DNA from: Patescibacteria group bacterium | GTDB lineage: Bacteria; Patescibacteriota; Minisyncoccia; UBA6257; UBA11618 | Direction of reading: 5' to 3' | DNA: 58,468 nucleotides | NCBI GenBank assembly: GCA_043822345.1 | Contig: JBDRBW010000009.1 | Coordinates: forward strand, 1-58,468 | Shown: positions 5,846 through 57,419 of the stretch, one piece after another | Layout: the number at the start of each line of letters is the position of its first letter | Position numbering within the stretch: position 1 is the first letter of the stretch | Position numbers and translations under genes: made by a program | Notes under the pieces: model-generated | What the model saw: the letters and a program-made list of their open reading frames with translations, nothing else | Database searches by the model: none | What the model was told of the DNA's origin: nothing

Positions 5846-6063
5846 GTCATTCTGAACGAAGTGCCCGCCTGCCAGGCCGCCATCGGCTTTGCCGAAGGCA
5901 TGCCGGCGGGCAACGCTGTAGCACTTGCGGGCAGGAAGAATCTTTACCGGTTAAATTTCTCCCGCTCTTAGCGGGACCCCGCCAAGGCGGTGGTAATTCA
6001 CCTAATAAAATTTCTAATCGCCCAAGTTCCAACCCGTCATTGCGAGTGATAGCGAAGTAATCT
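5846..6063. repeat. composite of GTCAT-type elements (family A half, cccgcc..ggcggg module, gtcattgcgag..gaagtaatct unit)
   Basis: gtcattctgaacgaagtg at 5846, aagaatcttt near 5936, gtcattgcgagtgatagcgaagtaatct at 6036-6063. Lies upstream of rpsL. Confidence 0.7.
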
Positions 6064-6972: not shown

Positions 6973-7624
6973 ATATGGGTAGATTTGGTCCAATTCCAAC
7001 CAGTAATAGTAGAATGTTGAAAACAAAGAAAACTACCGCCTGTAGGACGGGTAGGAGGAAGAGAATGAAGAAAATAATGAAGAAAAATCCATAACGTTCT
7101 AGCGTAGCTTGAATATGGGCGGCGGAATGCGGTAAAAAAGCAAAGAGGATTTTGGAGCCGTCTAGCGGCGGAAAAGGCACTAGATTAAAAACCGCCAGCA
7201 AGATATTAAGTAAAACAATGATACTAAAAGCGGTCATTAGCATTTCGCCGCCAATGCCAAAAGTTACCGGCAGGTGTAGTAATAGAGCAAAAACAGTTGC
7301 TAAAAAGATATTGGAGATCGGGCCGGCGGCGCCGATTATAGCCGCCCCCTTTTTGGGATCGGCTAGATTGTAGGGATTATAAGGCACGGGCTTGGCCCAG
7401 CCGATAATAATGGAACTGCCACCCAGAAGAATGGGAATAGCTAAAATCAACGGCACAATAATTGAGCCGAAAGGGTCAAGGTGTTTTAGTGGGTTAAGCG
7501 TTAATCGTCCCAGACGCTTGGCGGTATCGTCACCCAAATATAAAGCCACCGCTCCGTGAGAGATTTCATGAATCATTATGGAGAAAAGTAAGACTATTAG
7601 TTGGAAGATTAGTAAGGTAGCCAT
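6971..7624 (-). CDS. site-2 protease family (peptidase M50) membrane metalloprotease
   Basis: HEISHG (HExxH) in TM1, plus NLVPFPPLDG, the second S2P signature. The protein is polytopic. Confidence 0.8.
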   Translation of the reverse strand: MATLLIFQLIVLLFSIMIHEISHGAVALYLGDDTAKRLGRLTLNPLKHLDPFGSIIVPLILAIPILLGGSSIIIGWAKPVPYNPYNLADPKKGAAIIGAAGPISNIFLATVFALLLHLPVTFGIGGEMLMTAFSIIVLLNILLAVFNLVPFPPLDGSKILFAFLPHSAAHIQATLERYGFFFIIFFILFLLPVLQAVVFFVFNILLLLVGIGPNLPI

Positions 7625-7655: not shown

Positions 7656-7806
7656 AATAGATGGCGCAGTAATTGTTCCGAGAAAGACGGCTCGGCTCGC
7701 TCCAGCGGCGAGCCGTCCTTGATCTCAGCGAGTTTTCCTCGCTACGCTCGGAACCAAGCAAACTCGCTTCCGATACACTTTTCGGAACAACTCTGCGCCA
7801 TCTATT
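7656..7806. repeat. hairpin element family C, copy 1
   Basis: Outer inverted repeat aatagatggcgcag / ctgcgccatctatt. The inner conserved block accaagcaaactcgc.tccga.aca is shared with 40625-40777. Confidence 0.7.
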
Positions 7807-26878: not shown

Positions 26879-26960
26879 GTCATCCCGAGCGAGGCGTAGC
26901 CGAGTCGAGGGATCTCATCGATGAGATTTCTCCACTCGCTTTCAGCTCAGTCGAAATGAC
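26879..26960. repeat. family B palindromic element in the groES-groEL spacer
   Basis: gtcatcccgagcgagg...gagggatctcatcgatgagatttctcc...gtcgaaatgac. Confidence 0.8.
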
Positions 26961-30872: not shown

Positions 30873-32974
30873 TTTTTCATTGCGTTTTTGATAGTATTTG
30901 CAATATTTGACGAGCCGTTAATTGACTGATTATTATTTAATATTAAGGTGGGGATGCCCGCTCCCGTCGGAGGATAGTTATTCACTATATTGACATACAA
31001 TTTCCAACTATTGCCATCTTTGTCCTTCTGATTGCCCATCATACCCTTCAATGTCTGGCACGGTGGACAAAACATAGGTTTGTGATCATCGGAAGAAATG
31101 TAAAGCACTCCGATTTTTTTCGGCGCAGTTGGAATTATGGGTATGGTTGCCCAACCGCTGACACCGATCGTCGGCACTAACTTCTCTAATTCACCAATCC
31201 TTTGGCGAAAAATATTTTGCGCGGCAGTTATTTGGTTTTTATAATCTTGATTTGCTTGATTTGAAGGAATGATGGTTTGTATACCTTCCCAAATTTTGAT
31301 TAGTTCTATTAAGTTGCTTCTAAACCAGTTGGCGTAGTTTTTAATATTATCGCCACCACACTCGCTTGCGCCTGAACGCATTTTTTGCAAACGATCCAGT
31401 AAACCATTACTTTTGATAATCTCGCCATTGAACTCAAAATATCTTCTCCATAGTACAAAGTACCACCTGCTTTGCGTGCTTTTGATAATGTTTTGATAGC
31501 TGTCTCTGGGCAATATTTTGGCGGGATCGATATTGATTTTACTAAAATATTCTTTGGTGCTGGCAATCATTTTTTCATTACTCACTCTTTGGCTGTTGGC
31601 TAAATTAATAAACGCATCCAAAACTTTCTTCTGCTCCGGTGAACATTGTTGCCGTTCTTCCTCTTCAATCACCCTACCTTTCAAAATATCACTAATTTCT
31701 TTGGCGATTTTTTTATCGGCATCGCTTAGATTAGGGTCAAGAGTAATATTGGGGTCGGTTGCTATGCATAGTGATGGTTTTTCTGCTGGCGGAGGAGGCA
31801 AATCCGGCCTGGGAGCAACAACCGGCGGCTCTTCCGGCGGCTCCGTAATTAAGAAATTACACTTATCAAAAGCTTTCTTAAATTCATCACTATATTTAAA
31901 CTCGCACTTTTTTGGATTAAGGCCTTTAGCTGTTATTTTTGATTCTAATAAAGTTTGAAAACGGACATATTTGCCACTCTTAATATCTTCAACATATTTT
32001 TGCAGATCAGGATCATTGAGATCCATAATAGGTGTCGCTAGAGCGCATAAATCCTCTTCACCATCATTGTTAGTATCGGTACAATAAGAGAGCAGAATTT
32101 CGCCATCTTTGATGAAGATTTTTTTAATAATTATAGCGCAAGACGCTGTTGGTTGGCATAATTCCGCCATTTTTTTGGGATCGGCTTTTTGGACTGTGGC
32201 AGCCATATCTTTTAATTCAAACTCCATTGTTAATGCGGTGTCCTTATGGCTAGCGCGATTTAACGCGTCCAAATTCACCTGAACATAATGAGAAGCATTA
32301 TCGGGATTGGTGCCAGCGCGAATCCCAAAGTCCATTTCTTTTCCGTTAATAGTTTTAGTAACAACTAGCTTACCTTGTAGATTTGCATACTCATAGTCGC
32401 TAAAGTAAACGGGGTCGCCTGACGGCAGATAGAGTACCCGACTGGCATCGGGCGTAGATTTTTCAAAATCAGCTTTGGTGTCACTGCGGCTAAGCAGAGT
32501 ACTGCGGTATTCCTGAAGATACTTTTGGGCGTTATTTAAACTTTCCGCCAGTTGAGTAAATAGCGTTTGGAGCTTTTGTTCACTAGGACATTGGCCGTTC
32601 TGATTTTTGCCATCTAGCCAGTCAATAATGGATTGGGCTGACGATTCGGCTACACTTAGATTGTATTGAACACTATTAATTTTGGATATTGCTTTATTTA
32701 AAGTTGTGGCATAGTCGCCATTGGGAAATGCCCAAACGGTCCAGCTGGAACTTTTCCAACTCTCTACGGCATTAATAAGATTTCCGGTAGCCGATTGCTG
32801 GTCCTCTAGAAAACCAAAGATAATCTCCAAATCAAAACCGGCTGGTTCAATATATTTTGGGTCTAACGCCAACGCCCGATTGCCAAAAGTTTGCGCTACC
32901 AAAACAAACGCCAGCGCAAAAACTATTAGCAATAACAGATATTTTGACAGTTTTTTCATTTGCAAATAGGACAC
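30869..32974 (-). CDS. secreted modular protein with C-terminal thioredoxin-like CPPC domain
   Basis: Signal or TM segment, a helical region, the linker EPPEEPPVVAPRPDLPPPPAEKP, and C-terminal ...MFCPPCQTL...GIPTLIL (CxxC plus a cis-Pro-like motif). Confidence 0.6.
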   Translation of the reverse strand: MSYLQMKKLSKYLLLLIVFALAFVLVAQTFGNRALALDPKYIEPAGFDLEIIFGFLEDQQSATGNLINAVESWKSSSWTVWAFPNGDYATTLNKAISKINSVQYNLSVAESSAQSIIDWLDGKNQNGQCPSEQKLQTLFTQLAESLNNAQKYLQEYRSTLLSRSDTKADFEKSTPDASRVLYLPSGDPVYFSDYEYANLQGKLVVTKTINGKEMDFGIRAGTNPDNASHYVQVNLDALNRASHKDTALTMEFELKDMAATVQKADPKKMAELCQPTASCAIIIKKIFIKDGEILLSYCTDTNNDGEEDLCALATPIMDLNDPDLQKYVEDIKSGKYVRFQTLLESKITAKGLNPKKCEFKYSDEFKKAFDKCNFLITEPPEEPPVVAPRPDLPPPPAEKPSLCIATDPNITLDPNLSDADKKIAKEISDILKGRVIEEEERQQCSPEQKKVLDAFINLANSQRVSNEKMIASTKEYFSKINIDPAKILPRDSYQNIIKSTQSRWYFVLWRRYFEFNGEIIKSNGLLDRLQKMRSGASECGGDNIKNYANWFRSNLIELIKIWEGIQTIIPSNQANQDYKNQITAAQNIFRQRIGELEKLVPTIGVSGWATIPIIPTAPKKIGVLYISSDDHKPMFCPPCQTLKGMMGNQKDKDGNSWKLYVNIVNNYPPTGAGIPTLILNNNQSINGSSNIANTIKNAMKK

Positions 32975-34887
32975 TTGTAATTTTTTACATCTTTAACGCC
33001 GATCGCAGGATAAAGCGCTTCTAATGATTGCTGTCGCTCTTTTAATCTTCTTTGCGCTTCTACGGAGTTATTTTCTATCCATTCCTTGGGGAAAAATTTT
33101 TCTAAAGCACAGCCACCCCATTTGCATTTTGACGAATGCAATAGCCACTCCCGAAATCGTTTGGCGATTTCTTCGATCGTTGCCCGAGAATAAGTTTCGT
33201 TATCGGCGCGCATTTTTTTGAGGGCATCAATCATCTTGACTAAATCTTTTTGAAAGCTCTCGTTGCTGTCTTTTATCTCTTTTAAGCAGGATAATCGCGC
33301 CCTAGTGTTGGCATCGAGCGTTGATCTAAGCGCCTGATCGGTAAATGACCAGTTAACAATTATTTTGTCAATAATAACGGCCTGAGCGCCAATATTTTTG
33401 GCGGTTAAGCCAACAATTTTGGAAGAGTCAAGTTGGTCAAGTTTAATGTTGGCACTGTCAAGAATAAGATTGGTGGCTTGGCTATTGGTAGGCGGCGGCG
33501 TAGCGCTAAAACCAAAATGGTTAGTTTGAACGGAGCCGTCGCTCATAATAAAAGTGAGGCCAACAAGGGCGCCGGACATAGTTTTATTAAAATTAAGGAT
33601 GAGGTTGTAACTTTTACCGGGATTGAGGGTAAAGTTGGAAACATTAAGCGCCTCGCCTGACCGACCGAAACCAACCCACTCCATCCCCAAATTACCGCTG
33701 TAAATAAGAATTTGATTAATATTAACATTCAATCCTAAGGACTGGTTAAAGACCTGTATAACGCTCGTGTTTTCTTTAAATTGCTCTTCTAATAATCCAA
33801 TCATTGCGTCTAGCTTAGCCAAATCTTCAACAGTTGGTCCAACGCTATCGGGCGGTTCTTGGGGCAGCGGCACCTGGGCCACCGCCGGTAGATTATCAAT
33901 TGCGCAAGGATCATCATCTTGATTAGTGGGTGGTTTCGGCTGTGGTTTGAAAGCGAGACATTGTTTTTTGGCGTCAGCTGTTATAGTAACCGTGCAATTA
34001 AGAAGCGGTTTACCGCCATTATATTGTTTTTCATATGCCTCCCGTACCGGCTCAAAGATATTTTTCGGCGGACCAGAGTTAATAATACTTTCCGCAGAAA
34101 TATTAACAGGTTTTCCATTGACAGTTATTGCAAACTCATCATCGCTCATCCTCTTGATGTTAGTAATCTTCAGTTCGCACTTTTCCGGTGGCGGCTGGGG
34201 CTTGGGCTCGGTTGCCGGCGGTGGTGTTATTTTGCACTGTTGAAATCGCTGAAAATCTTTAATTCTTTGGGCAGCCGCTTGAAGTTCGTTGTTATAGTAT
34301 GTCCGTTCCCCATCAGTCATATAAGCGTCCCATATGCTATTAATAAGCGGTTTGGTATTTTTCAGATACCCTTCAAATTGGCGAAGGGCATTCTGAATTT
34401 TCTGGGACTGAGATACCGAATAGCGAACAACTTGATCGATATATTGTTTGTCGGCCGCGGTAAACTCACCGGTCGTAGTTCTTGTTTGAATCACTCCCAA
34501 ATTTTCTATTGCCCCCGGCTTATCACCTTGACCAACAAGATCGCTTTGTAACTGTTTGAGTGTGCTGATTATATTTTGCTGGTGCTGGATAATATTTGAT
34601 CTGATTGCCCTCTCTTTACCCGCGCCAATACCTCTGGCTTGGTTTATTTTTTGCCGCTGCTCTTGTATTTTTTGATTTAGGTCTCTTATGCCAACATTAG
34701 TTTCGTTAACGCCTTTTTTAAGGCGATTAACGATGTCGTCTATAGTTACGGTACATCCCCCTTGTTGGGCAAAAACAAAACCCGACATTGACCAAATTAA
34801 TACCAACAAAACCAATACTGCGATAAGTATTGACAAAATTATTATTTTATGATATAATTGCATTGGAAGATTAAATTTACCCGTCAT
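32956..34887 (-). CDS. membrane-anchored coiled-coil/Pro-rich protein with C-terminal Cys motifs
   Basis: TM helix, coiled coil, PPPATEPKPQPPPEKC, and a C-terminal CKWGGC ... CPICK. Overlaps the next gene by 19 nt. Confidence 0.6.
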   Translation of the reverse strand: MTGKFNLPMQLYHKIIILSILIAVLVLLVLIWSMSGFVFAQQGGCTVTIDDIVNRLKKGVNETNVGIRDLNQKIQEQRQKINQARGIGAGKERAIRSNIIQHQQNIISTLKQLQSDLVGQGDKPGAIENLGVIQTRTTTGEFTAADKQYIDQVVRYSVSQSQKIQNALRQFEGYLKNTKPLINSIWDAYMTDGERTYYNNELQAAAQRIKDFQRFQQCKITPPPATEPKPQPPPEKCELKITNIKRMSDDEFAITVNGKPVNISAESIINSGPPKNIFEPVREAYEKQYNGGKPLLNCTVTITADAKKQCLAFKPQPKPPTNQDDDPCAIDNLPAVAQVPLPQEPPDSVGPTVEDLAKLDAMIGLLEEQFKENTSVIQVFNQSLGLNVNINQILIYSGNLGMEWVGFGRSGEALNVSNFTLNPGKSYNLILNFNKTMSGALVGLTFIMSDGSVQTNHFGFSATPPPTNSQATNLILDSANIKLDQLDSSKIVGLTAKNIGAQAVIIDKIIVNWSFTDQALRSTLDANTRARLSCLKEIKDSNESFQKDLVKMIDALKKMRADNETYSRATIEEIAKRFREWLLHSSKCKWGGCALEKFFPKEWIENNSVEAQRRLKERQQSLEALYPAIGVKDVKNYKCPICK

Positions 34888-34977
34888 CCTGAACGAAGTG
34901 AAGGATCTTTAAAAGATTCTTCCTGCCCGCAATCGCTACGCCCAAGCGTTGCAGGCGGGCGCAGAGCTCAGAATGAC
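34883..34977. repeat. family A palindromic element with nested ctgcccgc..gcgggc module
   Basis: gtcatcctgaacgaagtgaaggatct-ttaaa-agattcttc[ctgcccgc...gcaggcgggc]..ctcagaatgac. Confidence 0.8.
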
Positions 34978-36506: not shown

Positions 36507-38381
36507 GAGCAATTCCTTAAAAATAGAGGTGGGGATTTGGACTTGAGATTTTTCGGCGCGTTCTTGAAGTTTAGCTTTTCCTTTTTGTTGTTTTTTCCAA
36601 AGTTTCATCTTGCGGGTGCGGTCGCCGCCGTAAAGATAGCCGGTAACGTCTTTTTTAAACGCCGAGATGGTCTCGCGGGCAATAATCTTGCCACCCACCG
36701 CCGCCTGAATAGCTTGGACGAACTGCTGGCGCGGCAATAATTCTTTTAACTTTTCCACAGTTTGCCGCGCCTCTCTTTCCAGTTTTTCCTTGGGAACAAT
36801 TCTGGTCAGCCCCGGCACCAGATGGCCGGCGATTAAAATCTCCAACTTTTCCAGATTACTTTTTTCATAACCAATTAGCTTATAACTTAAAGAAGCATAG
36901 CCCTCGGACAAGGATTTTAATTTATCATCAAAATCGCTGATGAGGTCGGCTAGAGGCAGTTTGGCAGTCACTAAAACCAGCTTTTCACCAATATTTTCCG
37001 TCTCAAAACCGCTTAAACGAAACCATTTCTTCAAAGACATCACACCGCCCAAATACTGCGGCGGCGCTACAATCTCCAACTCCACAACCGGCTCCTCCGC
37101 TTCGTCATACTCCGCCGGAAAATCTTTCGGACTATTAATGGGTTTACGACACCCATTAATGGAAATTTGGTAGGTGACGGAGGGGAAGCTGTGAATGGTG
37201 GCGATTTTGAACTCTTTTTGCAAACGCTCGGCGGTAATTTCAAAATGCAATTGTCCCAAAAAACCGCACTTAAACCCTTTGCCCAACAGCTCGCTTTTAT
37301 CTTGCTCAAAAAATAGTGATGAATCGGTAAGCTTTAGTTTTTCTAAAGCATTTTTTAAATCGCTATACTCACTACTATCTTCAGGATAAAAAGAAACAAA
37401 CACCACCGGCTGGGACTCAGCATAGCCCGGCAATACCAGCTTATCAAAATTTGAAATTTGAAATTTAAAATTTGAAATTATCGTATCTCCTATTTTAACT
37501 GGGCCAATATCCTTAATGCCAGTAGCGATGTAGCCAATTTCACCGGCGTTTAATTCTTTGGAAGATTTTAATTGGGGATGAAAATAGCCAACTTCTTTTA
37601 TTTTGGCGCTAGTTTTAGTTGCTAAAAATTGTATTTGATTTCCATTATTAAACCCACCATTAAAAATCCGCACAAAAGCAATCACCCCTCTATGGTCATC
37701 ATAAAGAGAGTCGAAGATAAGGGCGCGAGACACTCCGTCAGATCCTTCACTATGTTCTGGATGACGTGGTGAAGGGACTTTCTTAATAACTTCTTCCAAC
37801 AACTCCTCCACTCCTTCGCCAGTTTTGCCGGAAATTTTTAAAATCTCCTCCGGTTCAACTTTTAGAAGATCGGCGAGGGATTGGACAACCTCCTCCAGAT
37901 CGGGTGGATTGAGATCTATTTTACTAACAGCGCCAATAATGGTCAGGCCGGCTTTTTTGGCGGCATTAAAATTAGCCAGGGTTTGCGCCTGAATTCCTTG
38001 AGTAACATCTACCAGTAAAATCGCTCCCTCAACCGCCGCCAACGCCCGTGAGACCTCGTAAGAGAAATCAGAATGGCCGGGGGTGTCTATTAGATTTAGA
38101 ATGTATAGGCCATTGTCATTCTGAGTTCCGGCTTTAGCCGTGAACGAAGAATCTTTTACAGATCCTTCACTGTGTTCAGGATGACTAAAAGTGTAGTTCA
38201 TCCGCACTGGCGCCATTTTAATGGTAATCCCCCGCTCGCGTTCCGATTCCAGCCGATCCAAATACTGCGGCTTCATCTGCCGCTTTTCTATCGTGCCGGT
38301 AATCTCCAGCATCCGATCAGCCAGAGTTGATTTACCGTGATCAACATGGCTGATAATAACAAAGTTTCTGATATTGTTCAT
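36498..38381 (-). CDS. lepA: translation elongation factor 4 (LepA) carrying two repeat-derived in-frame insertions
   Basis: MNNIRNFVIISHVDHGKST, DTPGH. The ORF opens at TTG 38393, but the ATG at 38381 matches the canonical N-terminus. Confidence 0.95.
   Translation of the reverse strand: MNNIRNFVIISHVDHGKSTLADRMLEITGTIEKRQMKPQYLDRLESERERGITIKMAPVRMNYTFSHPEHSEGSVKDSSFTAKAGTQNDNGLYILNLIDTPGHSDFSYEVSRALAAVEGAILLVDVTQGIQAQTLANFNAAKKAGLTIIGAVSKIDLNPPDLEEVVQSLADLLKVEPEEILKISGKTGEGVEELLEEVIKKVPSPRHPEHSEGSDGVSRALIFDSLYDDHRGVIAFVRIFNGGFNNGNQIQFLATKTSAKIKEVGYFHPQLKSSKELNAGEIGYIATGIKDIGPVKIGDTIISNFKFQISNFDKLVLPGYAESQPVVFVSFYPEDSSEYSDLKNALEKLKLTDSSLFFEQDKSELLGKGFKCGFLGQLHFEITAERLQKEFKIATIHSFPSVTYQISINGCRKPINSPKDFPAEYDEAEEPVVELEIVAPPQYLGGVMSLKKWFRLSGFETENIGEKLVLVTAKLPLADLISDFDDKLKSLSEGYASLSYKLIGYEKSNLEKLEILIAGHLVPGLTRIVPKEKLEREARQTVEKLKELLPRQQFVQAIQAAVGGKIIARETISAFKKDVTGYLYGGDRTRKMKLWKKQQKGKAKLQERAEKSQVQIPTSIFKELLKK
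37740..37765. repeat. family A half element inside lepA
   Basis: agatccttcactatgttctggatgac encodes RHPEHSEGS. Confidence 0.75.
38115..38185. repeat. family A full element inside lepA
   Basis: gtcattctgag...gaagaatctttt-aca-gatccttcactgtgttcaggatgac encodes HPEHSEGSVKDSSFTAKAGTQND. Confidence 0.8.
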
Positions 38382-39155: not shown

Positions 39156-40568
39156 TTAAGATTCTTCACTTCGTTCAGAATGACGGATTGAAAGACCTAA
39201 TTCGTCTAATTGTTCTTTACTCGCTTCGCTGGGGGCATCCATCATTAAATCACGGGCGTCGCCAGTTTTAGGAAAGGCGATGACTTCGCGAATATTGGGC
39301 TCGTCATTAAGAATAGCAACTAGCCGGTCAATACCGGCGGCAATCCCGCCATGAGGCGGAGCGCCAAAACCCAACGCCGCCAGCATATGACCAAAATTAG
39401 ATTTTATTTGGTCGTTTTTAACGCCAATTATTTGCAACACTTTTTTGAGTACTTTGGGATTGTGGCTACGAATACTGCCACCGGCCACCTCCTGTCCATT
39501 AAGCACTAAGTCGTACTGGTTGGTGATAATCTTGCCAATATTTTTCTCCTCCATTAACCATTGCTCATGTTCTTTAAGAGGCGCGGAGAAAGGATTGTGG
39601 GTAAATGTCCATTTGTCTTCTTTTGTTTTTTCGAAAAATGGGAAATTGGTTACCCAAGCGAAAGCCAACTCATCTTTGTCGTCTTTATTTTTGCGCAAGT
39701 CCGGCGAGTCGGTTTTGTATTTTTTTATTACATCAGCGTACTTCAGGCGAGGAAACGGCTTTTTGGTAAGTTTTTTGTGGGGAAAAAGTTTTTCCACCAT
39801 TTCAATAAACAAGCCCTCAATAACACCCATTACATCTTCTTTCTCCACAAATGACATTTCTAAGTCCAATTGAGTAAATTCCGGCTGGCGGTCGCCGCGA
39901 GTGTCTTCATCGCGAAAGCAACGGGCTATTTGAAAATACTTCTCCAACCCCGCCACCATCAATAATTGCTTATATTGCTGAGGAGCTTGAGGCAAGGCGT
40001 AGAACTTGCCGGGGTAGATACGGGAAGGCACAAGAAAATCACGGGCGCCCTCAGGGGTGGATTTGGAAATAATTGGTGTTTCTATTTCTATAAACTCCTG
40101 ATCGCTTAAATAATCCCTGATGAGTTTATTAATGGCATGGCGGCTACGCATATTTTTTTGCATCCGAGGACGGCGTAAATCAAGATAACGATACCGCAAG
40201 CGGCTTTCCTCGCCAATTTCCCTGCCGTCGGTATCAACAGCAATAGGCGGCGTTTCTGCTTTGTTTAACACCTCCAGATTTTCTACCAACACCTCCCATT
40301 TACCTGATTTAAGTTCAGTATTGATTAAATCCTTGGGACGTTTGTTGACTTTGCCGGTAATTTTAACCACCCATTCGGACCGTAATTCATCGGCCTGGCT
40401 AAATAACACTTTTTCTTTAGCGGTAAAAACACACTGCGCCAATCCGCTTTTATCCCTCAAATCTATAAAAATTATCTTGCCGTGGTCACGCCGAGCGCCC
40501 ACCCAGCCCATCAATATAACTTTTTTGCCCTCTTGTTTGCCGATGTCGGCAGTAAGTGTTCTTTGCAT
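39156..40568 (-). CDS. aspS: aspartate--tRNA ligase, bacterial type without GAD insertion
   Basis: QSPQ-like QAPQQYKQLLMV, FRDEDTRGDRQPEFTQLD (motif 2), GGIAAGIDR (motif 3). 470 aa. Confidence 0.93.
   Translation of the reverse strand: MQRTLTADIGKQEGKKVILMGWVGARRDHGKIIFIDLRDKSGLAQCVFTAKEKVLFSQADELRSEWVVKITGKVNKRPKDLINTELKSGKWEVLVENLEVLNKAETPPIAVDTDGREIGEESRLRYRYLDLRRPRMQKNMRSRHAINKLIRDYLSDQEFIEIETPIISKSTPEGARDFLVPSRIYPGKFYALPQAPQQYKQLLMVAGLEKYFQIARCFRDEDTRGDRQPEFTQLDLEMSFVEKEDVMGVIEGLFIEMVEKLFPHKKLTKKPFPRLKYADVIKKYKTDSPDLRKNKDDKDELAFAWVTNFPFFEKTKEDKWTFTHNPFSAPLKEHEQWLMEEKNIGKIITNQYDLVLNGQEVAGGSIRSHNPKVLKKVLQIIGVKNDQIKSNFGHMLAALGFGAPPHGGIAAGIDRLVAILNDEPNIREVIAFPKTGDARDLMMDAPSEASKEQLDELGLSIRHSERSEES
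39158..39184. repeat. family A half element forming the aspS 3' end
   Basis: aagattcttcacttcgttcagaatgac encodes RHSERSEES plus the stop. Confidence 0.75.
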
Positions 40569-40587
40569 AATAAGTTGAGTTTACAAC

Positions 40588-40617
40588 GTCATCTCGAGCT
40601 TGTCGAGAGATCTCATC
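40588..40617. repeat. family B half element
   Basis: gtcatctcgagcttgtcgagagatctcatc. Confidence 0.6.
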
Positions 40618-40624
40618 GATTTAA

Positions 40625-40777
40625 CGAAGCGGCTCCGAAGTGGCCTTCAGAAACCGCGGTCCGATTTTTCCAGCGAAAATCGGCCGCTTGGCTCTCGGCG
40701 AGTTTCCTTCGGCAAGCTCAGGACCAAGCAAACTCGCCTCCGAGACATTTCTTCAGACCACATTCGGAGCCACTTCG
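40625..40777. repeat. hairpin element family C, copy 2
   Basis: Outer inverted repeat cgaagcggctccgaagtgg / ccacattcggagccacttcg. The inner conserved block is shared with 7656-7806. Confidence 0.7.
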
Positions 40778-40780
40778 TTC

Positions 40781-42088
40781 TTACTTCGTATTTTCCATAA
40801 TCCCGCCACCAAGCATCTCTTTCCCTTTGGTGTCATAAAACACCGCCGACTGGCCAATGGCGATGGCTTTTTGCGGTTTATCAAACTTAATAATGCAATT
40901 TACGACACGCCGTGTCGCAAATTGCAGAGTGGCTTTTTGAAGCAGTTGGCAGTAGCGGATACGGGCTAGCACGGAGATTTCAAACACGTCGTCATTCTGA
41001 GCCATAGGCGAAGAATCTTTGTTGGATCCTTCGGACTCCGTCTTCAGGATGACTGAAGAAAATAAATTTACTTCGGTTAATTTAATTTCAGATTTATAAA
41101 GAGCGGGGTGGTTGTCGCCTTCAGCGATGGTTATTGTATTTTTTTTAATATCTTTCGCGACAACATAAAACGGCTTTCTATTCGTCCCCGTAATTCTTAA
41201 TTCGTAATTCTTAATTCGTAAGTGCCGTTGCCCAATCGTATAAAACCACGCTCCATTATGTTCCCCCACTTTATTGTGAGCGATATCCAATATCGCTCCT
41301 TTTTTTTCGGGAATATATTGCTTGAGAAAATCCACCAGACCGACTTTGCCTAAAAAACAAATCCCCTGCGAGTCCTTTTTTTCGGCGGTTAATAAACCGT
41401 GTTTTTTAGCAATTTTCCTCACTTCCGCTTTGGTATAGTCCCCTATTGGAAACAAGCAGTGTTTTAGCTGATCTTGCGTTAATTTCCATAAAAAATAGGA
41501 TTGGTCTTTATTCTTATCCTTAGCAATTTGTAGCGACAAGTATTGATCACAAAAGCGAGCGGTTTCGGATGTGGACTTGTAGCCATCTCGAGCCTGTCGC
41601 CCGCCCGCCTCGCTATGCAAGGCATTGCGGGCAGGAGAGATCTCATCAACTTGGACGCACTGAGATCCTTCGACTTCGCCCTTCGGGCTTCGCTCAGGAT
41701 GACGGTAGAGTTTTACATAGTGCCCAGTCGCCACAAAATCAGCGCCCAACACCAGCGCCTTTTCCAAAAACAAACCGAATTTAATTTCAGAATTGCACAT
41801 CACGTCAGGATTGGGCGTAATTCCTTTTTTGTAGCCCGCCACCATATACTTGACCACCTTATCTTTATATTCCTGCTCTAAATCAAAAACATAAAAAGGA
41901 ATCTCTAGTTTTTCCGCCACACGGCGGGCGTCATCGGCATCTTTTGCGCCACAACCATCAACGTTGTAGCACTTGATATGACAACCAATAACCTCGTGGC
42001 CATCTTTTTTCAACAACAAAGCCGCCACCGAGCTATCCACTCCGCCACTCAACATTACAAATACCTTGTTAAATTTCAGATTTGACAT
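40781..42088 (-). CDS. mnmA: tRNA 2-thiouridine(34) synthase MnmA carrying two repeat-derived in-frame insertions
   Basis: PP-loop SGGVDSS, NKDQSYFL, KKDSQGICF. 435 aa. Confidence 0.93.
   Translation of the reverse strand: MSNLKFNKVFVMLSGGVDSSVAALLLKKDGHEVIGCHIKCYNVDGCGAKDADDARRVAEKLEIPFYVFDLEQEYKDKVVKYMVAGYKKGITPNPDVMCNSEIKFGLFLEKALVLGADFVATGHYVKLYRHPERSPKGEVEGSQCVQVDEISPARNALHSEAGGRQARDGYKSTSETARFCDQYLSLQIAKDKNKDQSYFLWKLTQDQLKHCLFPIGDYTKAEVRKIAKKHGLLTAEKKDSQGICFLGKVGLVDFLKQYIPEKKGAILDIAHNKVGEHNGAWFYTIGQRHLRIKNYELRITGTNRKPFYVVAKDIKKNTITIAEGDNHPALYKSEIKLTEVNLFSSVILKTESEGSNKDSSPMAQNDDVFEISVLARIRYCQLLQKATLQFATRRVVNCIIKFDKPQKAIAIGQSAVFYDTKGKEMLGGGIMENTK
40991..41053. repeat. family A full element inside mnmA
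   Basis: gtcattctgag...gaagaatcttt/ggatccttcg...cttcaggatgac encodes VILKTESEGSNKDSSPMAQND. Confidence 0.8.
41582..41703. repeat. composite B/A element inside mnmA
   Basis: gccatctcgag..[cgcccgcc...gcgggcagg]..gagagatctcatc...tgagatccttcg...gctcaggatgac. Open through 122 nt. Confidence 0.8.
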
Positions 42089-43047: not shown

Positions 43048-44664
43048 TTATTTGTCTTTTTTGAGCGCGCCTTCAAGCGCACTACGGAGGGCGGCTATAT
43101 CAACGGATTGTTTTGGTGGTCTAGGAGTTTGAGGTCTAAGATTGGGTTTTTCAGGATGACGAGGGGGGGGCGTTGATAAGATTTCTCCACTACGGTCGAA
43201 ATGACTATGCGGTGGGCGGGGTGGAGACGGACGACGGAAAGATCCTTCACTTCGTCGAGTCAGACTCGACTGCGGTTCAGGATGACGCTGAGGATAATCA
43301 GAATGACGCGGAGTAAGAACCTCACGAAGAGGTTTTTCTTCGCGACGGGCGGCGCGATCGGTGGAAGTTTTTTCCGAGGTGGAAAGCCACTCTCGGGCGA
43401 TTTTTTCCTCCACCGTACTCTTGGGAATAGCATAACGACTGCGAGTGTTTTCTATAATGACATCAATAAAGTTTTCTGCCGATGGAGTGGGAGGCGCCAA
43501 GGTCTTGGCGGCAAAAGGACGAGAAGCCAAGCCATCAATCATTAACTTTATATAAATATGGTATTTTGCCAGATTAACTAGGTCGTTGATATCATACTCG
43601 GGATTAAACTCCTTTTCCACAAACTCGGCGTCTTTGGCGCCGATGCGAAAAATAGCCATCGTCCCCACGTTGCCAAAAATAGCCGAACGAACAGCGTAAG
43701 ATCCCTCATGATCCAACTGGTCTAAATACTGGTTGGCAAGAATGAGCGATAGCCGATATTTACGCGCCTCGGATAAAACATTCACAAAGGACTCGGTGGC
43801 GAAGTTCTGAAATTCATCAACGTATAAGTAAAAGTCACGGCGCTCCTCTTCGGGGACATTAACCCGCGACATCGCCGCTAATTGCAGTTTGGTAATAATC
43901 ATCGCTCCCAACAAAGCCGAATTATCCTCGCCAACTTTTCCCTTGGACAAATTAGCAATCAAAATCTTTCCCTCATCCATAATCTTGCGCATATCAATAG
44001 TAGAGTGCGCCTGCCCCAAGATGTTGCGAATGAGCGGATTGGAAATAAACTGGCCAACTTTATTTTGAATGGCGGCGGTCGCCTCGCTCTCAAAACGTTG
44101 ACTATACTTAGCAAACTCATCCACCCAAAAACTCTTAACCACCGGATCCTTTAAATTACTAACAATCTCTTTACGATACTCGGGATTATTAAGCATCCGC
44201 TGAATGCCCAGTAGAGTCGTCCCCGGATACTCCAACAATGCCAAAAGGGCGTTATTAAGAATATATTGCATGCGCGCCGACCAGGCGTCAGCCCAGATTT
44301 TTTTGAACACTCCCATCATACTGGAAGCCACCAAATGCCGAAAATCGGGACTCACCTCTTCTAATGGATTAAAAGAAATAGGAAATTCAGTATCGGAAGG
44401 GTCAATATAAATTACATCGTCCAGCCGCTCCTCGGGAATAAAGTTAAGAATGGTCTCGGCTGAACCGCCGTGAGGATCCAAAAACGCCACGCCATAACCG
44501 GCCTTAATATCATCAATAATCATATTCTCCAACAGAGTGCTTTTACCGACACCGGTTTTTCCTAAGACATAAACGTGGCGGCGACGGTCGTCATCCTTAA
44601 TACCAAAGCGGCGCGACTCGCCGCGGAAAACCGTCTCGCCTATAGTTGTGATGTGTTCCTTCAT
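43048..44664 (-). CDS. VirD4/TraD-like (DUF87-type) P-loop ATPase, soluble, with repeat-derived C-terminal tail
   Basis: Walker A GKTGVGKST, FLDPHG, Walker B LYVDEFQNF, LILANQYLDQL. No N-terminal TM. Confidence 0.75.
   Translation of the reverse strand: MKEHITTIGETVFRGESRRFGIKDDDRRRHVYVLGKTGVGKSTLLENMIIDDIKAGYGVAFLDPHGGSAETILNFIPEERLDDVIYIDPSDTEFPISFNPLEEVSPDFRHLVASSMMGVFKKIWADAWSARMQYILNNALLALLEYPGTTLLGIQRMLNNPEYRKEIVSNLKDPVVKSFWVDEFAKYSQRFESEATAAIQNKVGQFISNPLIRNILGQAHSTIDMRKIMDEGKILIANLSKGKVGEDNSALLGAMIITKLQLAAMSRVNVPEEERRDFYLYVDEFQNFATESFVNVLSEARKYRLSLILANQYLDQLDHEGSYAVRSAIFGNVGTMAIFRIGAKDAEFVEKEFNPEYDINDLVNLAKYHIYIKLMIDGLASRPFAAKTLAPPTPSAENFIDVIIENTRSRYAIPKSTVEEKIAREWLSTSEKTSTDRAARREEKPLREVLTPRHSDYPQRHPEPQSSLTRRSEGSFRRPSPPRPPHSHFDRSGEILSTPPPRHPEKPNLRPQTPRPPKQSVDIAALRSALEGALKKDK
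43150..43307. repeat. cluster of family A/B half elements inside the ATPase 3' end
   Basis: ttcaggatgac, agatttctccac..gtcgaaatgac, aagatccttcacttcgtcgag, ggttcaggatgac and tcagaatgac in tandem. Confidence 0.75.
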
Positions 44665-47838: not shown

Positions 47839-47928
47839 GTCATTTCGACCAAAGTGGAGAAATCTCATCATTCTTGCGAACTCAAAGCACTGAGATCTCT
47901 CGACTCGCTATCGCTCGCTCGAGATGAC
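47839..47928. repeat. family B full element spanning the secD stop and the secD-secF spacer
   Basis: gtcatttcgaccaaagtggagaaatctca...tgagatctctcgactcgc...cgagatgac. Confidence 0.8.
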
Positions 47929-54048: not shown

Positions 54049-54106
54049 GTCATTTTGAACGAATGTGAAAAATCTTTTAAAGATCCTTCGCTACGCTCAG
54101 GATGAC
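54049..54106. repeat. family A full element
   Basis: gtcattttgaacgaatgtgaaaaatctttt-aa-agatccttcgctacgctcaggatgac. Confidence 0.8.
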
Positions 54107-56889: not shown

Positions 56890-56949
56890 GTCATTCTGAA
56901 CAAAGTGAAGAATCTTTATAAAAGATCCTTCGCTAACGCTCAGGATGAC
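56890..56949. repeat. family A full element in the grpE-dnaK spacer
   Basis: gtcattctgaacaaagtgaagaatcttt-ataa-aagatccttcgctaacgctcaggatgac. Confidence 0.8.
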
Positions 56950-56960
56950 AAAATAATAAA

Positions 56961-57419
56961 TCATTTTGTCACTTTTACTTTTGTGGGGCGGATTATTTTG
57001 TCGTATAATTTATAACCCGCTTCTACTATTTCAACAATCGTATCAGGTGGCTGTCCCGACTCAACTGCCACCACCGCCTCGTGAAGCGCTGGATTAAAAC
57101 TATCGCCGATATTGACTAATAACTTTTCAAGGCCGTGTTTTTTTAAAAGATTTTCTAGTTGAGACTGGATAAGCGATAATCCTCTAGTAGATTCTTCGCC
57201 CTGCTCAGAATGACTAACCGCCGTAGCCAAAGTAAAACTATCCAATACCGCCAATAGATCGCCGACAATCCCCTCATTGGCAAATTTAATAATCTCCTCA
57301 AAGCGCTTCAGTTCGTCTTTTTTGTAATTAATCAACTCCGCCTTAGCCCGCTTCCAACCGTCAAGATACTCTTCTTCCTTCGTCAAAGCTTCCGTGGGTT
57401 TTTCCTTATTCTCTTCCAT
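56961..57419 (-). CDS. grpE: nucleotide exchange factor GrpE with repeat-derived insertion
   Basis: ...AELINYKKD..., LLAVLDSF, HEAV......V..GY.L..K.IRP..V. 152 aa. Confidence 0.9.
   Translation of the reverse strand: MEENKEKPTEALTKEEEYLDGWKRAKAELINYKKDELKRFEEIIKFANEGIVGDLLAVLDSFTLATAVSHSEQGEESTRGLSLIQSQLENLLKKHGLEKLLVNIGDSFNPALHEAVVAVESGQPPDTIVEIVEAGYKLYDKIIRPTKVKVTK
57189..57214. repeat. family A half element inside grpE
   Basis: agattcttcgccctgctcagaatgac encodes SHSEQGEES. Confidence 0.75.

Follow-up and report, generated by a model that had tools for sequence, protein, structure and literature searches.

Small palindromic repeats within genes are a known kind of feature, and the closest described systems are the CGTC-tagged repetitive extragenic palindromic (REP) sequences (Di Nocera, De Gregorio and Rocco, 2013, BMC Genomics 14:522; PMC3733652). 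As defined in that account, a unit carries the tag CGTC (also TGTC or CCTC), a stem of 8-9 bp starting with A-T and T-A pairs, a loop of 4-5 nt and a 3-nt unpaired tail with the consensus CCA. The same account lists five phyla, leaves the mode of movement open, and takes into the superfamily Neisseria dRS3 together with RPE-4 and RPE-6 of Rickettsia conorii (CGTC-4 and CGTC-1, respectively). The Rickettsia palindromic elements (RPE) themselves go back to Ogata et al. (2000, Science 290:347; 2002, Genome Res 12:808), cited here through the summary in PMC10969869. A further system is formed by the GIY-YIG nuclease Ssn, which binds and cuts the NTS repeat (CGTCATTCCCGCGMAVGCGGGAATCYRG) as single-stranded DNA; hundreds of NTS copies occur per genome, and ssn frequently has the motif on either side (Chenal et al., 2025, Nat Commun 16:2388; PMC11893778). 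The present study concerns two repeat elements lying inside mnmA, the gene of tRNA 2-thiouridine(34) synthase, in an ultra-small groundwater bacterium (Patescibacteria group bacterium, assembly GCA_043822345.1, contig JBDRBW010000009.1); the window is the whole stretch of 58,468 nt that was analysed.

The two inserts are interpreted, with a probability of roughly 80%, as small selfish or semi-selfish CGTC-tagged REP hairpin repeats that integrated in frame and are probably translated as surface loops. Since REP and RPE copies within genes have been described before, the host and the locus are new, and the kind of feature is not. The case goes beyond the textbook one in three respects: a module is present or absent within a population, one insert is a heterodimer with nested hairpins, and the loops are reoccupied by unrelated families across the clade. 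An original prediction, made from the letters of the window, had noted two repeat insertions in mnmA; the CGTC-tagged REP identity, the module polymorphism and the occurrence of other palindromes at the same loops in relatives were not part of it.

Structure of the mnmA inserts

The mnmA product comprises the three MnmA domains, PF03054 (1.4e-69), PF20259 and PF20258, and matches the PDB MnmA structures 9hlv, 2hma and 2der at E values of 1e-68 to 1e-75, in alignments interrupted at query residues 131-189 and about 344-365. Comparison with 120 Paceibacteria orthologues (344-451 aa, the best being 58% identical) showed that all 72 invariant columns are retained, including those of the PP-loop S14-G-G-V-D-S19, of Cys98 (DVMCN) and of the second catalytic cysteine, Cys244 (GICF). 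The motifs are thus intact, as had been proposed, and the gene would be functional despite its inserts. When it is aligned with an insert-free orthologue, the protein shows 85 additional positions, the gaps at the three sites being of 47, 6 and 22 aa: element 1 falls within the first, a third repeat-derived stretch (site 3) lies at the second, and element 2 coincides exactly with the third. The gaps against PDB relatives, the orthologue set and the insert-free relative, from which the inserts are absent, all confirm the two insertions, and the extra residues exist as predicted, while their number rises from about 60 to 85 positions, site 3 at 41190-41222 included.

In an AlphaFold model built on the orthologue alignment (pLDDT 84.3, pTM 0.83), the MnmA fold is kept with the inserts in place (target-normalised TM 0.90-0.91 against 2hma and 2deu), and the inserts appear as low-confidence loops. 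Confidence is low mainly in the insert-bearing blocks, with 10-residue means of 36-65 at residues 131-180, a block that takes in a further stretch past element 1, of 54-71 at residues 341-370, and of 59 at 291-300; the residues of element 1 score 36-45 and those of element 2 score 54-64. The model places the inserts between beta-strands 125-130 and 183-188 and ahead of strand 369-376. Given this loop position, lengths that are multiples of three and the lack of stop codons, the inserts are most likely tolerated as translated loops.

At the DNA level (Table 1), element 2 is a plain dimer of two A-type units with their tags outward, at 40991-41016 (+) and 41026-41053 (-), both of which pass the strict unit search described below. 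Element 1 is an A/B heterodimer in which the loop of either unit encloses a further, nested hairpin. Its modular make-up is as first described, the B-type end (GCCATCTCGAGC), the GC-rich module (GCCCGCC...GCGGGCAG), the arms (GAGAGATCTC and GAGATCCTTC) and the A-type end all being present; a 15-nt spacer separates the B and A units, and a mini-hairpin, GCCCGAAGGGC (41678-41688), lies within the loop of the A unit. The position given for this composite stands, whereas its length of 122 nt, which is not a multiple of three, has to be corrected to 123 nt (41 codons), as the C of the CGTC tag is at 41704. Both elements are in frame and stop-free, and the translations quoted earlier match the encoded frame exactly. 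The 36-nt nested module is joined between GTC and GAG with at most 1 nt of ambiguity; related modules occupy the equivalent position in units at 5846-5946 and 34883-34977, and a single intergenic B-type unit shows the un-nested state.

The assignment to the CGTC type rests on a unit design that recurs throughout the window. The terminus GTCATYCTGARC occurs in 19 copies where 0.69 are expected, and a second terminus type, GYCATCYCGAGC, in 8 where 0.46 are expected. The unit can be written (C/T)GTC-AT-xyz-GA-RC-[GNA-type loop]-GY-GA-z'y'x'-AT-CTY, a hairpin of five Watson-Crick pairs, a conserved tandem G.A/A.G mismatch at positions 6-7 and two further pairs, making a stem of nine positions, seven of them Watson-Crick. 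The families A (stems CCT/TCT) and B (stems CTC/TTC) are stem variants of this single design. A strict search demanding exact complementarity of xyz returned 22 covarying units in the window; the orthologous loci of eight other genomes, 123 kb in all, gave none. Among 16 short units, 94.6% of cells are paired against 77.5% in shuffles (as high in 0 of 500), and in five of the seven stem pairs both partners vary; the first pair is A-T and the second T-A in all 16, and pairs 3-5 covary (UA/CG 9:7, CG/UA 10:6 and UA/CG 11:5). All 22 units carry an NGTC tag (11 CGTC, five TGTC, the others with A or G before GTC) and end in a CTT or CTC tail. In its basic form the loop is CGNAG-like, of 5 nt or of 3 nt closed by a C-G pair, and it is enlarged to 7-25 nt in eight of the 22.

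About eight inverted dimers were recognised in the window, among them those at 17-88, 26879-26960, 34883-34977, 38115-38185, 47839-47928, 54049-54106 and 56890-56949 besides the two in mnmA. Intergenic copies sit between complete genes (grpE, dnaK, dnaJ, groEL, rpsL and thyX), no gene in the window is split by a repeat, and no transposase was found among the neighbouring genes scanned. The same kind of insert is present in lepA, grpE, aspS, secD and an ATPase gene of the contig. Copies at the ends of aspS and secD provide the final codons and the stop codon, and all internal in-gene copies (two in mnmA, two in lepA and one in grpE) are in frame and stop-free, those elsewhere in the window sharing with mnmA the two open frames HPE.. 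and VIL... The idea that the repeats are built to be open in every frame was rejected, 1-5 of six frames being open, about as expected by chance; with so few open frames, selection against disruptive copies is the best explanation of why those found in genes are clean. As a separate observation, the open reading frame (ORF) at 32956..34887 has as its predicted start an ATG within the ATGAC terminus of a REP composite (34883-34887). A hairpin of the type TCCAGCGG at about 21653 was judged a chance match, and a full-text literature search with the terminal 12-mers gave unrelated primer matches only.

In principle, the RNA could lose the inserts by excision, or the ribosome could skip them, leaving a protein without them. 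Their hairpins are very stable (-24 kcal/mol for 76 nt around element 2, -49.7 kcal/mol for 136 nt around element 1), and an excision reading can also appeal to the lack of any RNA run containing mnmA. Excision would not, however, need the reading frame, free of stops, that every internal in-gene copy in the window maintains. The stop-containing loop of canonical copies (CTTTAAAAG) is altered in the mnmA copy. Furthermore, no Rfam ribozyme or intron family matches the mnmA region: at gathering thresholds only three tRNAs were returned, a lenient scan of 40560-41760 produced chance-level matches only, and the ribozyme or intron reading was dropped. A protein devoid of the inserts is consequently judged very improbable, and translation through them as loops is preferred.

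A syntenic relative without inserts in MnmA (L128, Table 1) keeps the gene order from secD through the ATPase gene, efp and mnmA to aspS-ndk-lepA. Its LepA, 70% identical, is without the 27 residues encoded by the full REP element (38115-38185) of the lepA gene studied here, and the locus is a useful empty-site comparator for each in-gene repeat of the window. It was also observed that its 21 kb contain no strict CGTC units and that its MnmA, LepA, AspRS, SecD and ATPase are all shorter.

Site 3 differs in kind from the two elements, consisting of 2.3 copies of a 14-nt AT-rich unit, and is missing from insert-free orthologues. The contig depth of this sequence is 4-5 times that of its flanks, so it is multi-copy in the metagenome, and no second copy was found in the window. 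Peptides resembling NYELGIKG occur at the site-3 loop in many orthologues, in which loop length is bimodal (10 aa versus 14-25 aa among the 120).

Junctions and a module variant in groundwater metagenomes

Repeats of this sort might be threaded wrongly into a gene by an assembler, or the gene carrying them might be decaying. Both inserts are multi-copy and cause de Bruijn graphs to fork within them, contigs are 5-15 times as deep in the repeat as in its flanks, and the organism is covered only 3-8x, all of which would suit an artefact. The junctions were followed in Logan contigs and unitigs from four public groundwater runs that contain mnmA (X1-X4), representing four samples and two studies and assembled independently, and they are supported in all four. 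In runs of the two studies, error-free contigs from these other assemblies cross the two junctions of either element. For element 2, three runs have a contig that contains it whole, covering 40925-41202 and 40838-41334 without differences and 40734-41218 with eight. Element 1 is tiled over both junctions by error-free unitigs in X1 and X2 (in X2, for example, 41553-41645 and 41635-41725), and its left junction is crossed in a third run at 41539-41624. A second haplotype, with 19 differences over 208 flanking positions, is represented by a contig that starts with the last eight element bases (from 41696) joined to the flank, and so shares the junction sequence of element 1. With the ORF intact, all invariant residues present and the same kind of insert in five other genes of the contig, mis-assembly or a pseudogene is scarcely credible; neither mis-assembly nor a frameshift, the two outcomes that the original prediction had named as fatal to it, was seen in the four runs.

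The same data revealed a variant of element 1. A minor X2 unitig anchored in unique mnmA sequence (41553-41598) joins straight to 41635-41664, skipping exactly 41599-41634, at a depth of 2.9 against 9.0 for the full form. A single natural population thus includes forms with and without the 36-nt nested module, whose removal keeps the frame (DEIS[PARNALHSEAGG]RQ).

Table 1. Positions of the mnmA inserts and of related features (window coordinates unless another contig or locus is named).
Feature	Position	Strand	Description
mnmA (tRNA 2-thiouridine(34) synthase)	40781..42088	minus	435 aa, intact ORF with three repeat-derived stretches
Element 1	41582..41704		123 nt, 41 codons, residues 129-169; read as RHPERSPKGEVEGSQCVQVDEISPARNALHSEAGGRQARDG
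Element 1, B-type unit	41582..41644	+	GCC-ATCTC-GA-GCCTGTC-[module]-GA-GAGAT-CTC; tag mutated from GTC to GCC
Nested GC-rich hairpin module	41599..41634		36 nt, 12 codons; GCCCGCCCGCC...TTGCGGGCAG, encoding PARNALHSEAGG
Element 1, A-type unit	41660..41704	-	CGTC-ATCCT-GA-GC...GA-AGGAT-CTC; from strict search (39-nt unit) and RNA fold
Element 2	40991..41053		63 nt, 21 codons, residues 346-366; read as VILKTESEGSNKDSSPMAQND
Site 3	41190..41222		14-nt AT-rich unit (gtaattcttaattc) x 2.3; read as LRIKNYELRITG
Junction peptides of the inserts			predicted translation ...VKLYRHPER... and ...MAQNDDVFEISVLAR...
Single intergenic B-type unit	40588..40615	+	CGTCATCTCGAGCTTGTCGAGAGATCTC; without the 36-nt module, un-nested state
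Family D, intergenic copy	40628..40778	+	immediately follows the mnmA stop codon; scores 129.5 bits with covariance model R1
In-gene units, lepA	38115-38185, 37740-37765
In-gene unit, grpE	57187-57214
In-gene unit, aspS	39157-39184		gene end
In-gene units, ATPase gene	43150-43307		tail, run of half units
In-gene units, secD	47839-47928		gene end
Syntenic relative L128	CAYJWP010000001.1, 43311-64354		MnmA of 347 aa without inserts
GIY-YIG gene (PF01541), Saccharibacteria MAG	L006, 7067-7415		E 5e-17
GIY-YIG gene (PF01541)	L108, 6135-6530		E 3e-15

Palindromes at the same loops in relatives

The loop that holds element 1 (site 1, from GHY to KDQSYF) is about 20 aa long in B. subtilis and E. coli. 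Among the 120 Paceibacteria orthologues it measures 15-26 aa in 24, 29-46 aa in 52 and 57-99 aa in 44, and it is therefore enlarged in 96. When the long-insert state is placed on a tree of the MnmA core, at least 27 changes are required, compared with 36 +/- 2.5 when labels are shuffled, and the state is highly labile.

Examination of the DNA of eight orthologue loci showed that site 1 is filled in seven of them (L001-L004 and L125-L127) by a palindrome of roughly 150 nt, in frame and in the same orientation, the match in L125 being weak (23.8 bits). This palindrome, family D, combines an outer stem with two hairpins, one whose loop is TCCAGCGR and one that carries a GACCAAGC motif. The site-1 inserts, of about 170-200 nt, fold at -64 to -94 kcal/mol, and the 297-nt insert of L125 at -154 kcal/mol; in the consensus fold, 31 of 36 pairs show compensatory changes. 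Across the orthologues, all three frames are used to read the conserved D loop (SSD, LQR and PA), so that the nucleic-acid structure is conserved and the peptide is not. Family D matches no Rfam family. When each site-1 insert was compared by BLAST with the locus it came from, no second copy reached E <0.01; a covariance model later found diverged ones: in the window the family occurs between genes only (40628-40778 and 7660-7806), and in other genomes it recurs at 1878-2034 of L002 and at 7117-7264 and 7821-7974 of L127, two of these further copies overlapping or lying inside a cysteine-desulfurase-like gene. At site 2, which holds element 2, three of the orthologue loci contain different GC-rich palindromes. 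In different lineages, then, palindromes of at least two unrelated families lie at site 1.

A search for a family-D remnant at site 1 of the genome studied here, by covariance model with filters off, gave 4.9-7.8 bits, which is not significant, and the replacement of a D element by the REP composite accordingly stays a guess. It may be recorded separately that the 13 residues following element 1 (KSTSETARFCDQY) are encoded by a weak hairpin at 41523-41587 (minus), which resembles the D outer stem with its interior deleted (4.9 bits, E 0.14, not significant).

These observations bear on the possibility that the palindromes are kept because they work, as hairpin signals in mRNA or single-stranded DNA, or that the loops are specific targets. 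The prevalence of loops of 29-99 aa, the recurrence of family D in one orientation, its compensatory changes and three reading frames, and the filling of the same loop by an unrelated REP composite in this genome are what such a role would lead one to expect. On the other side, family D also has copies scattered between genes and within another gene, and so behaves as a repeat and not as an mnmA-specific signal; 24 of the 120 orthologues, the close syntenic relative included, manage without an insert; the count of state changes speaks of lability and not of conservation; and DNA-level processes can keep a palindrome paired without any function. Functional landing pads are therefore considered unlikely, and selfish repeats tolerated in frame remain the preferred explanation of the mnmA inserts.

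A broader idea, put forward tentatively and held to be doubtful, is that a small number of loops in essential Patescibacteria enzymes serve as long-lived landing pads in which unrelated hairpin families repeatedly insert, nest and replace one another. In MnmA, these may be the beta-hairpin that follows ATGHY and the loop preceding the C-terminal barrel, and the families concerned may be CGTC REP dimers, the roughly 150-nt D palindrome and short AT-rich repeats. If this were true, DNA or RNA structure would be maintained while the peptide drifts through three frames, repeats would be a main driver of protein length variation in the phylum, the 36-nt variant would be the process caught in a living population, and an Ssn-type GIY-YIG nuclease enclosed by two units would be an autonomous partner.

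Wider spread and comparison with known repeats

The exact 26-nt unit pattern GTCATYCTGARCGNAGYGAAGRATCT was found in at least 120 genome stretches (L005-L124), whose metagenome-assembled genome (MAG) labels include Nitrospirae, Saccharibacteria, Chloroflexota, Acidobacteriota, Bacteroidota, Firmicutes, Planctomycetota, Omnitrophota and others. Among the matches listed, these 120 stretches hold 264 strict units, 199 TGTC-tagged and 43 CGTC-tagged, and 70 tags-outward dimers; such conservation of a unit across distant phyla is remarkable in a repeat. Two of the 120 stretches listed have a GIY-YIG gene of 93-131 aa between two inverted units of the same G.A-stem type. From its sequence context, the enclosed gene looks like an autonomous counterpart of the short dimers or an Ssn-type partner, and by analogy an Ssn-type enzyme would be the best candidate partner of these repeats.

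A mechanism in keeping with the preferred reading may be outlined as follows. Both elements would occupy loops between beta-strands, in multiples of three and in a stop-free frame, where they are most likely transcribed and translated as disordered surface loops, the enzyme staying active; gene-breaking copies would be purged by selection. The hairpin probably acts as single-stranded DNA and, if the Ssn system is a guide, would be recognised by a small GIY-YIG nuclease of that type. The loops would be structurally permissive, and nested or replacement insertion into resident palindromes could keep them occupied.

Several points weigh against the interpretation as inserted and translated selfish repeats. 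Site 1 is located within the MnmA catalytic domain, and a literature search yielded nothing usable that places the site-1 hairpin relative to the tRNA. The metagenomic runs may include the source sample, being independent of the assembler and not necessarily of the sample, and the four of them contain neither a joint removing a whole element nor a complete empty-site allele. mnmA is contained in no RNA run among the public runs searched, and its translation through the inserts is what we infer. None of the eight complete copies inspected has a target-site duplication or direct repeat, and the boundaries given are accordingly provisional. The window itself has no GIY-YIG-like ORF, and the published search pattern for Ssn-related motifs (SRM), HGTCWYN(0-2)YYVSBRHN(0-5)WNVSBRGN(0-2)RNCYNB has no match on either of its strands, shuffles averaging 0.26.

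The case offers read-supported selfish hairpin DNA inside a conserved gene of a tiny-genome phylum, in which strong constraint is presumed on every gene. For annotation, repeats of this kind explain the range of 344-451 aa of Patescibacteria MnmA and the recurrent low-complexity peptides (RHPERSEGS, VILSEAKDL and the like) of Patescibacteria proteins. With regard to mechanism, the polymorphic 36-nt module and the GIY-YIG gene enclosed by units are handles on the movement of CGTC-type repeats.

[quoted passage not shown] The absence of target-site duplications sets the elements apart from classical MITEs, and their 'terminal repeats' are autonomous hairpin units that are also found singly. The NTS of Chenal et al. 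(2025; PMC11893778) has in common with the window units the sequence CGTCAT..., a hairpin and ...ATCY, and the two GIY-YIG genes found here have units on both sides, much as ssn often has the motif; the effect shown for Ssn is single-stranded DNA cutting and modulation of transformation, not repeat movement. As RPE are summarised in PMC10969869, they too are palindromic repeats that have entered unrelated housekeeping genes of a reduced genome without loss of frame; they are read through as extra peptide judged to suit the fold, with several insertions per gene possible. RPE-1, on the other hand, is in that summary one element, some 150 bp long, in which a single peptide frame is conserved, compared with dimers of 24-45-nt units in two frames here, and, unlike RPE, the mnmA inserts have other palindrome families at the same loop in relatives. 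The link to named RPE families is the one drawn in PMC3733652, where RPE-4 and RPE-6 are equated with CGTC-4 and CGTC-1.

The closest correspondence is with the CGTC REPs as set out by Di Nocera et al. (2013; PMC3733652). In both, an unpaired (C/T)GTC tag stands at one end and the stem, of 8-9 positions, starts A-T/T-A; in loop and tail the agreement is partial, the basic loop being short but often enlarged and the 3-nt tail differing in sequence; units occur mostly as inverted dimers, heterodimers included, with no adjoining transposase; and copies are intergenic, at gene ends or wholly in genes, where dimers encode 20-30 aa. The window dimers have their tags outward. In contrast to the definition given there, the window units have a tandem G.A/A.G stem mismatch, a GNA-type triloop and a CTY tail instead of CCA. 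They also differ in the extra hairpins nested in their loops and in their host, a member of the Patescibacteria (candidate phyla radiation, CPR), a phylum outside the five listed in 2013.

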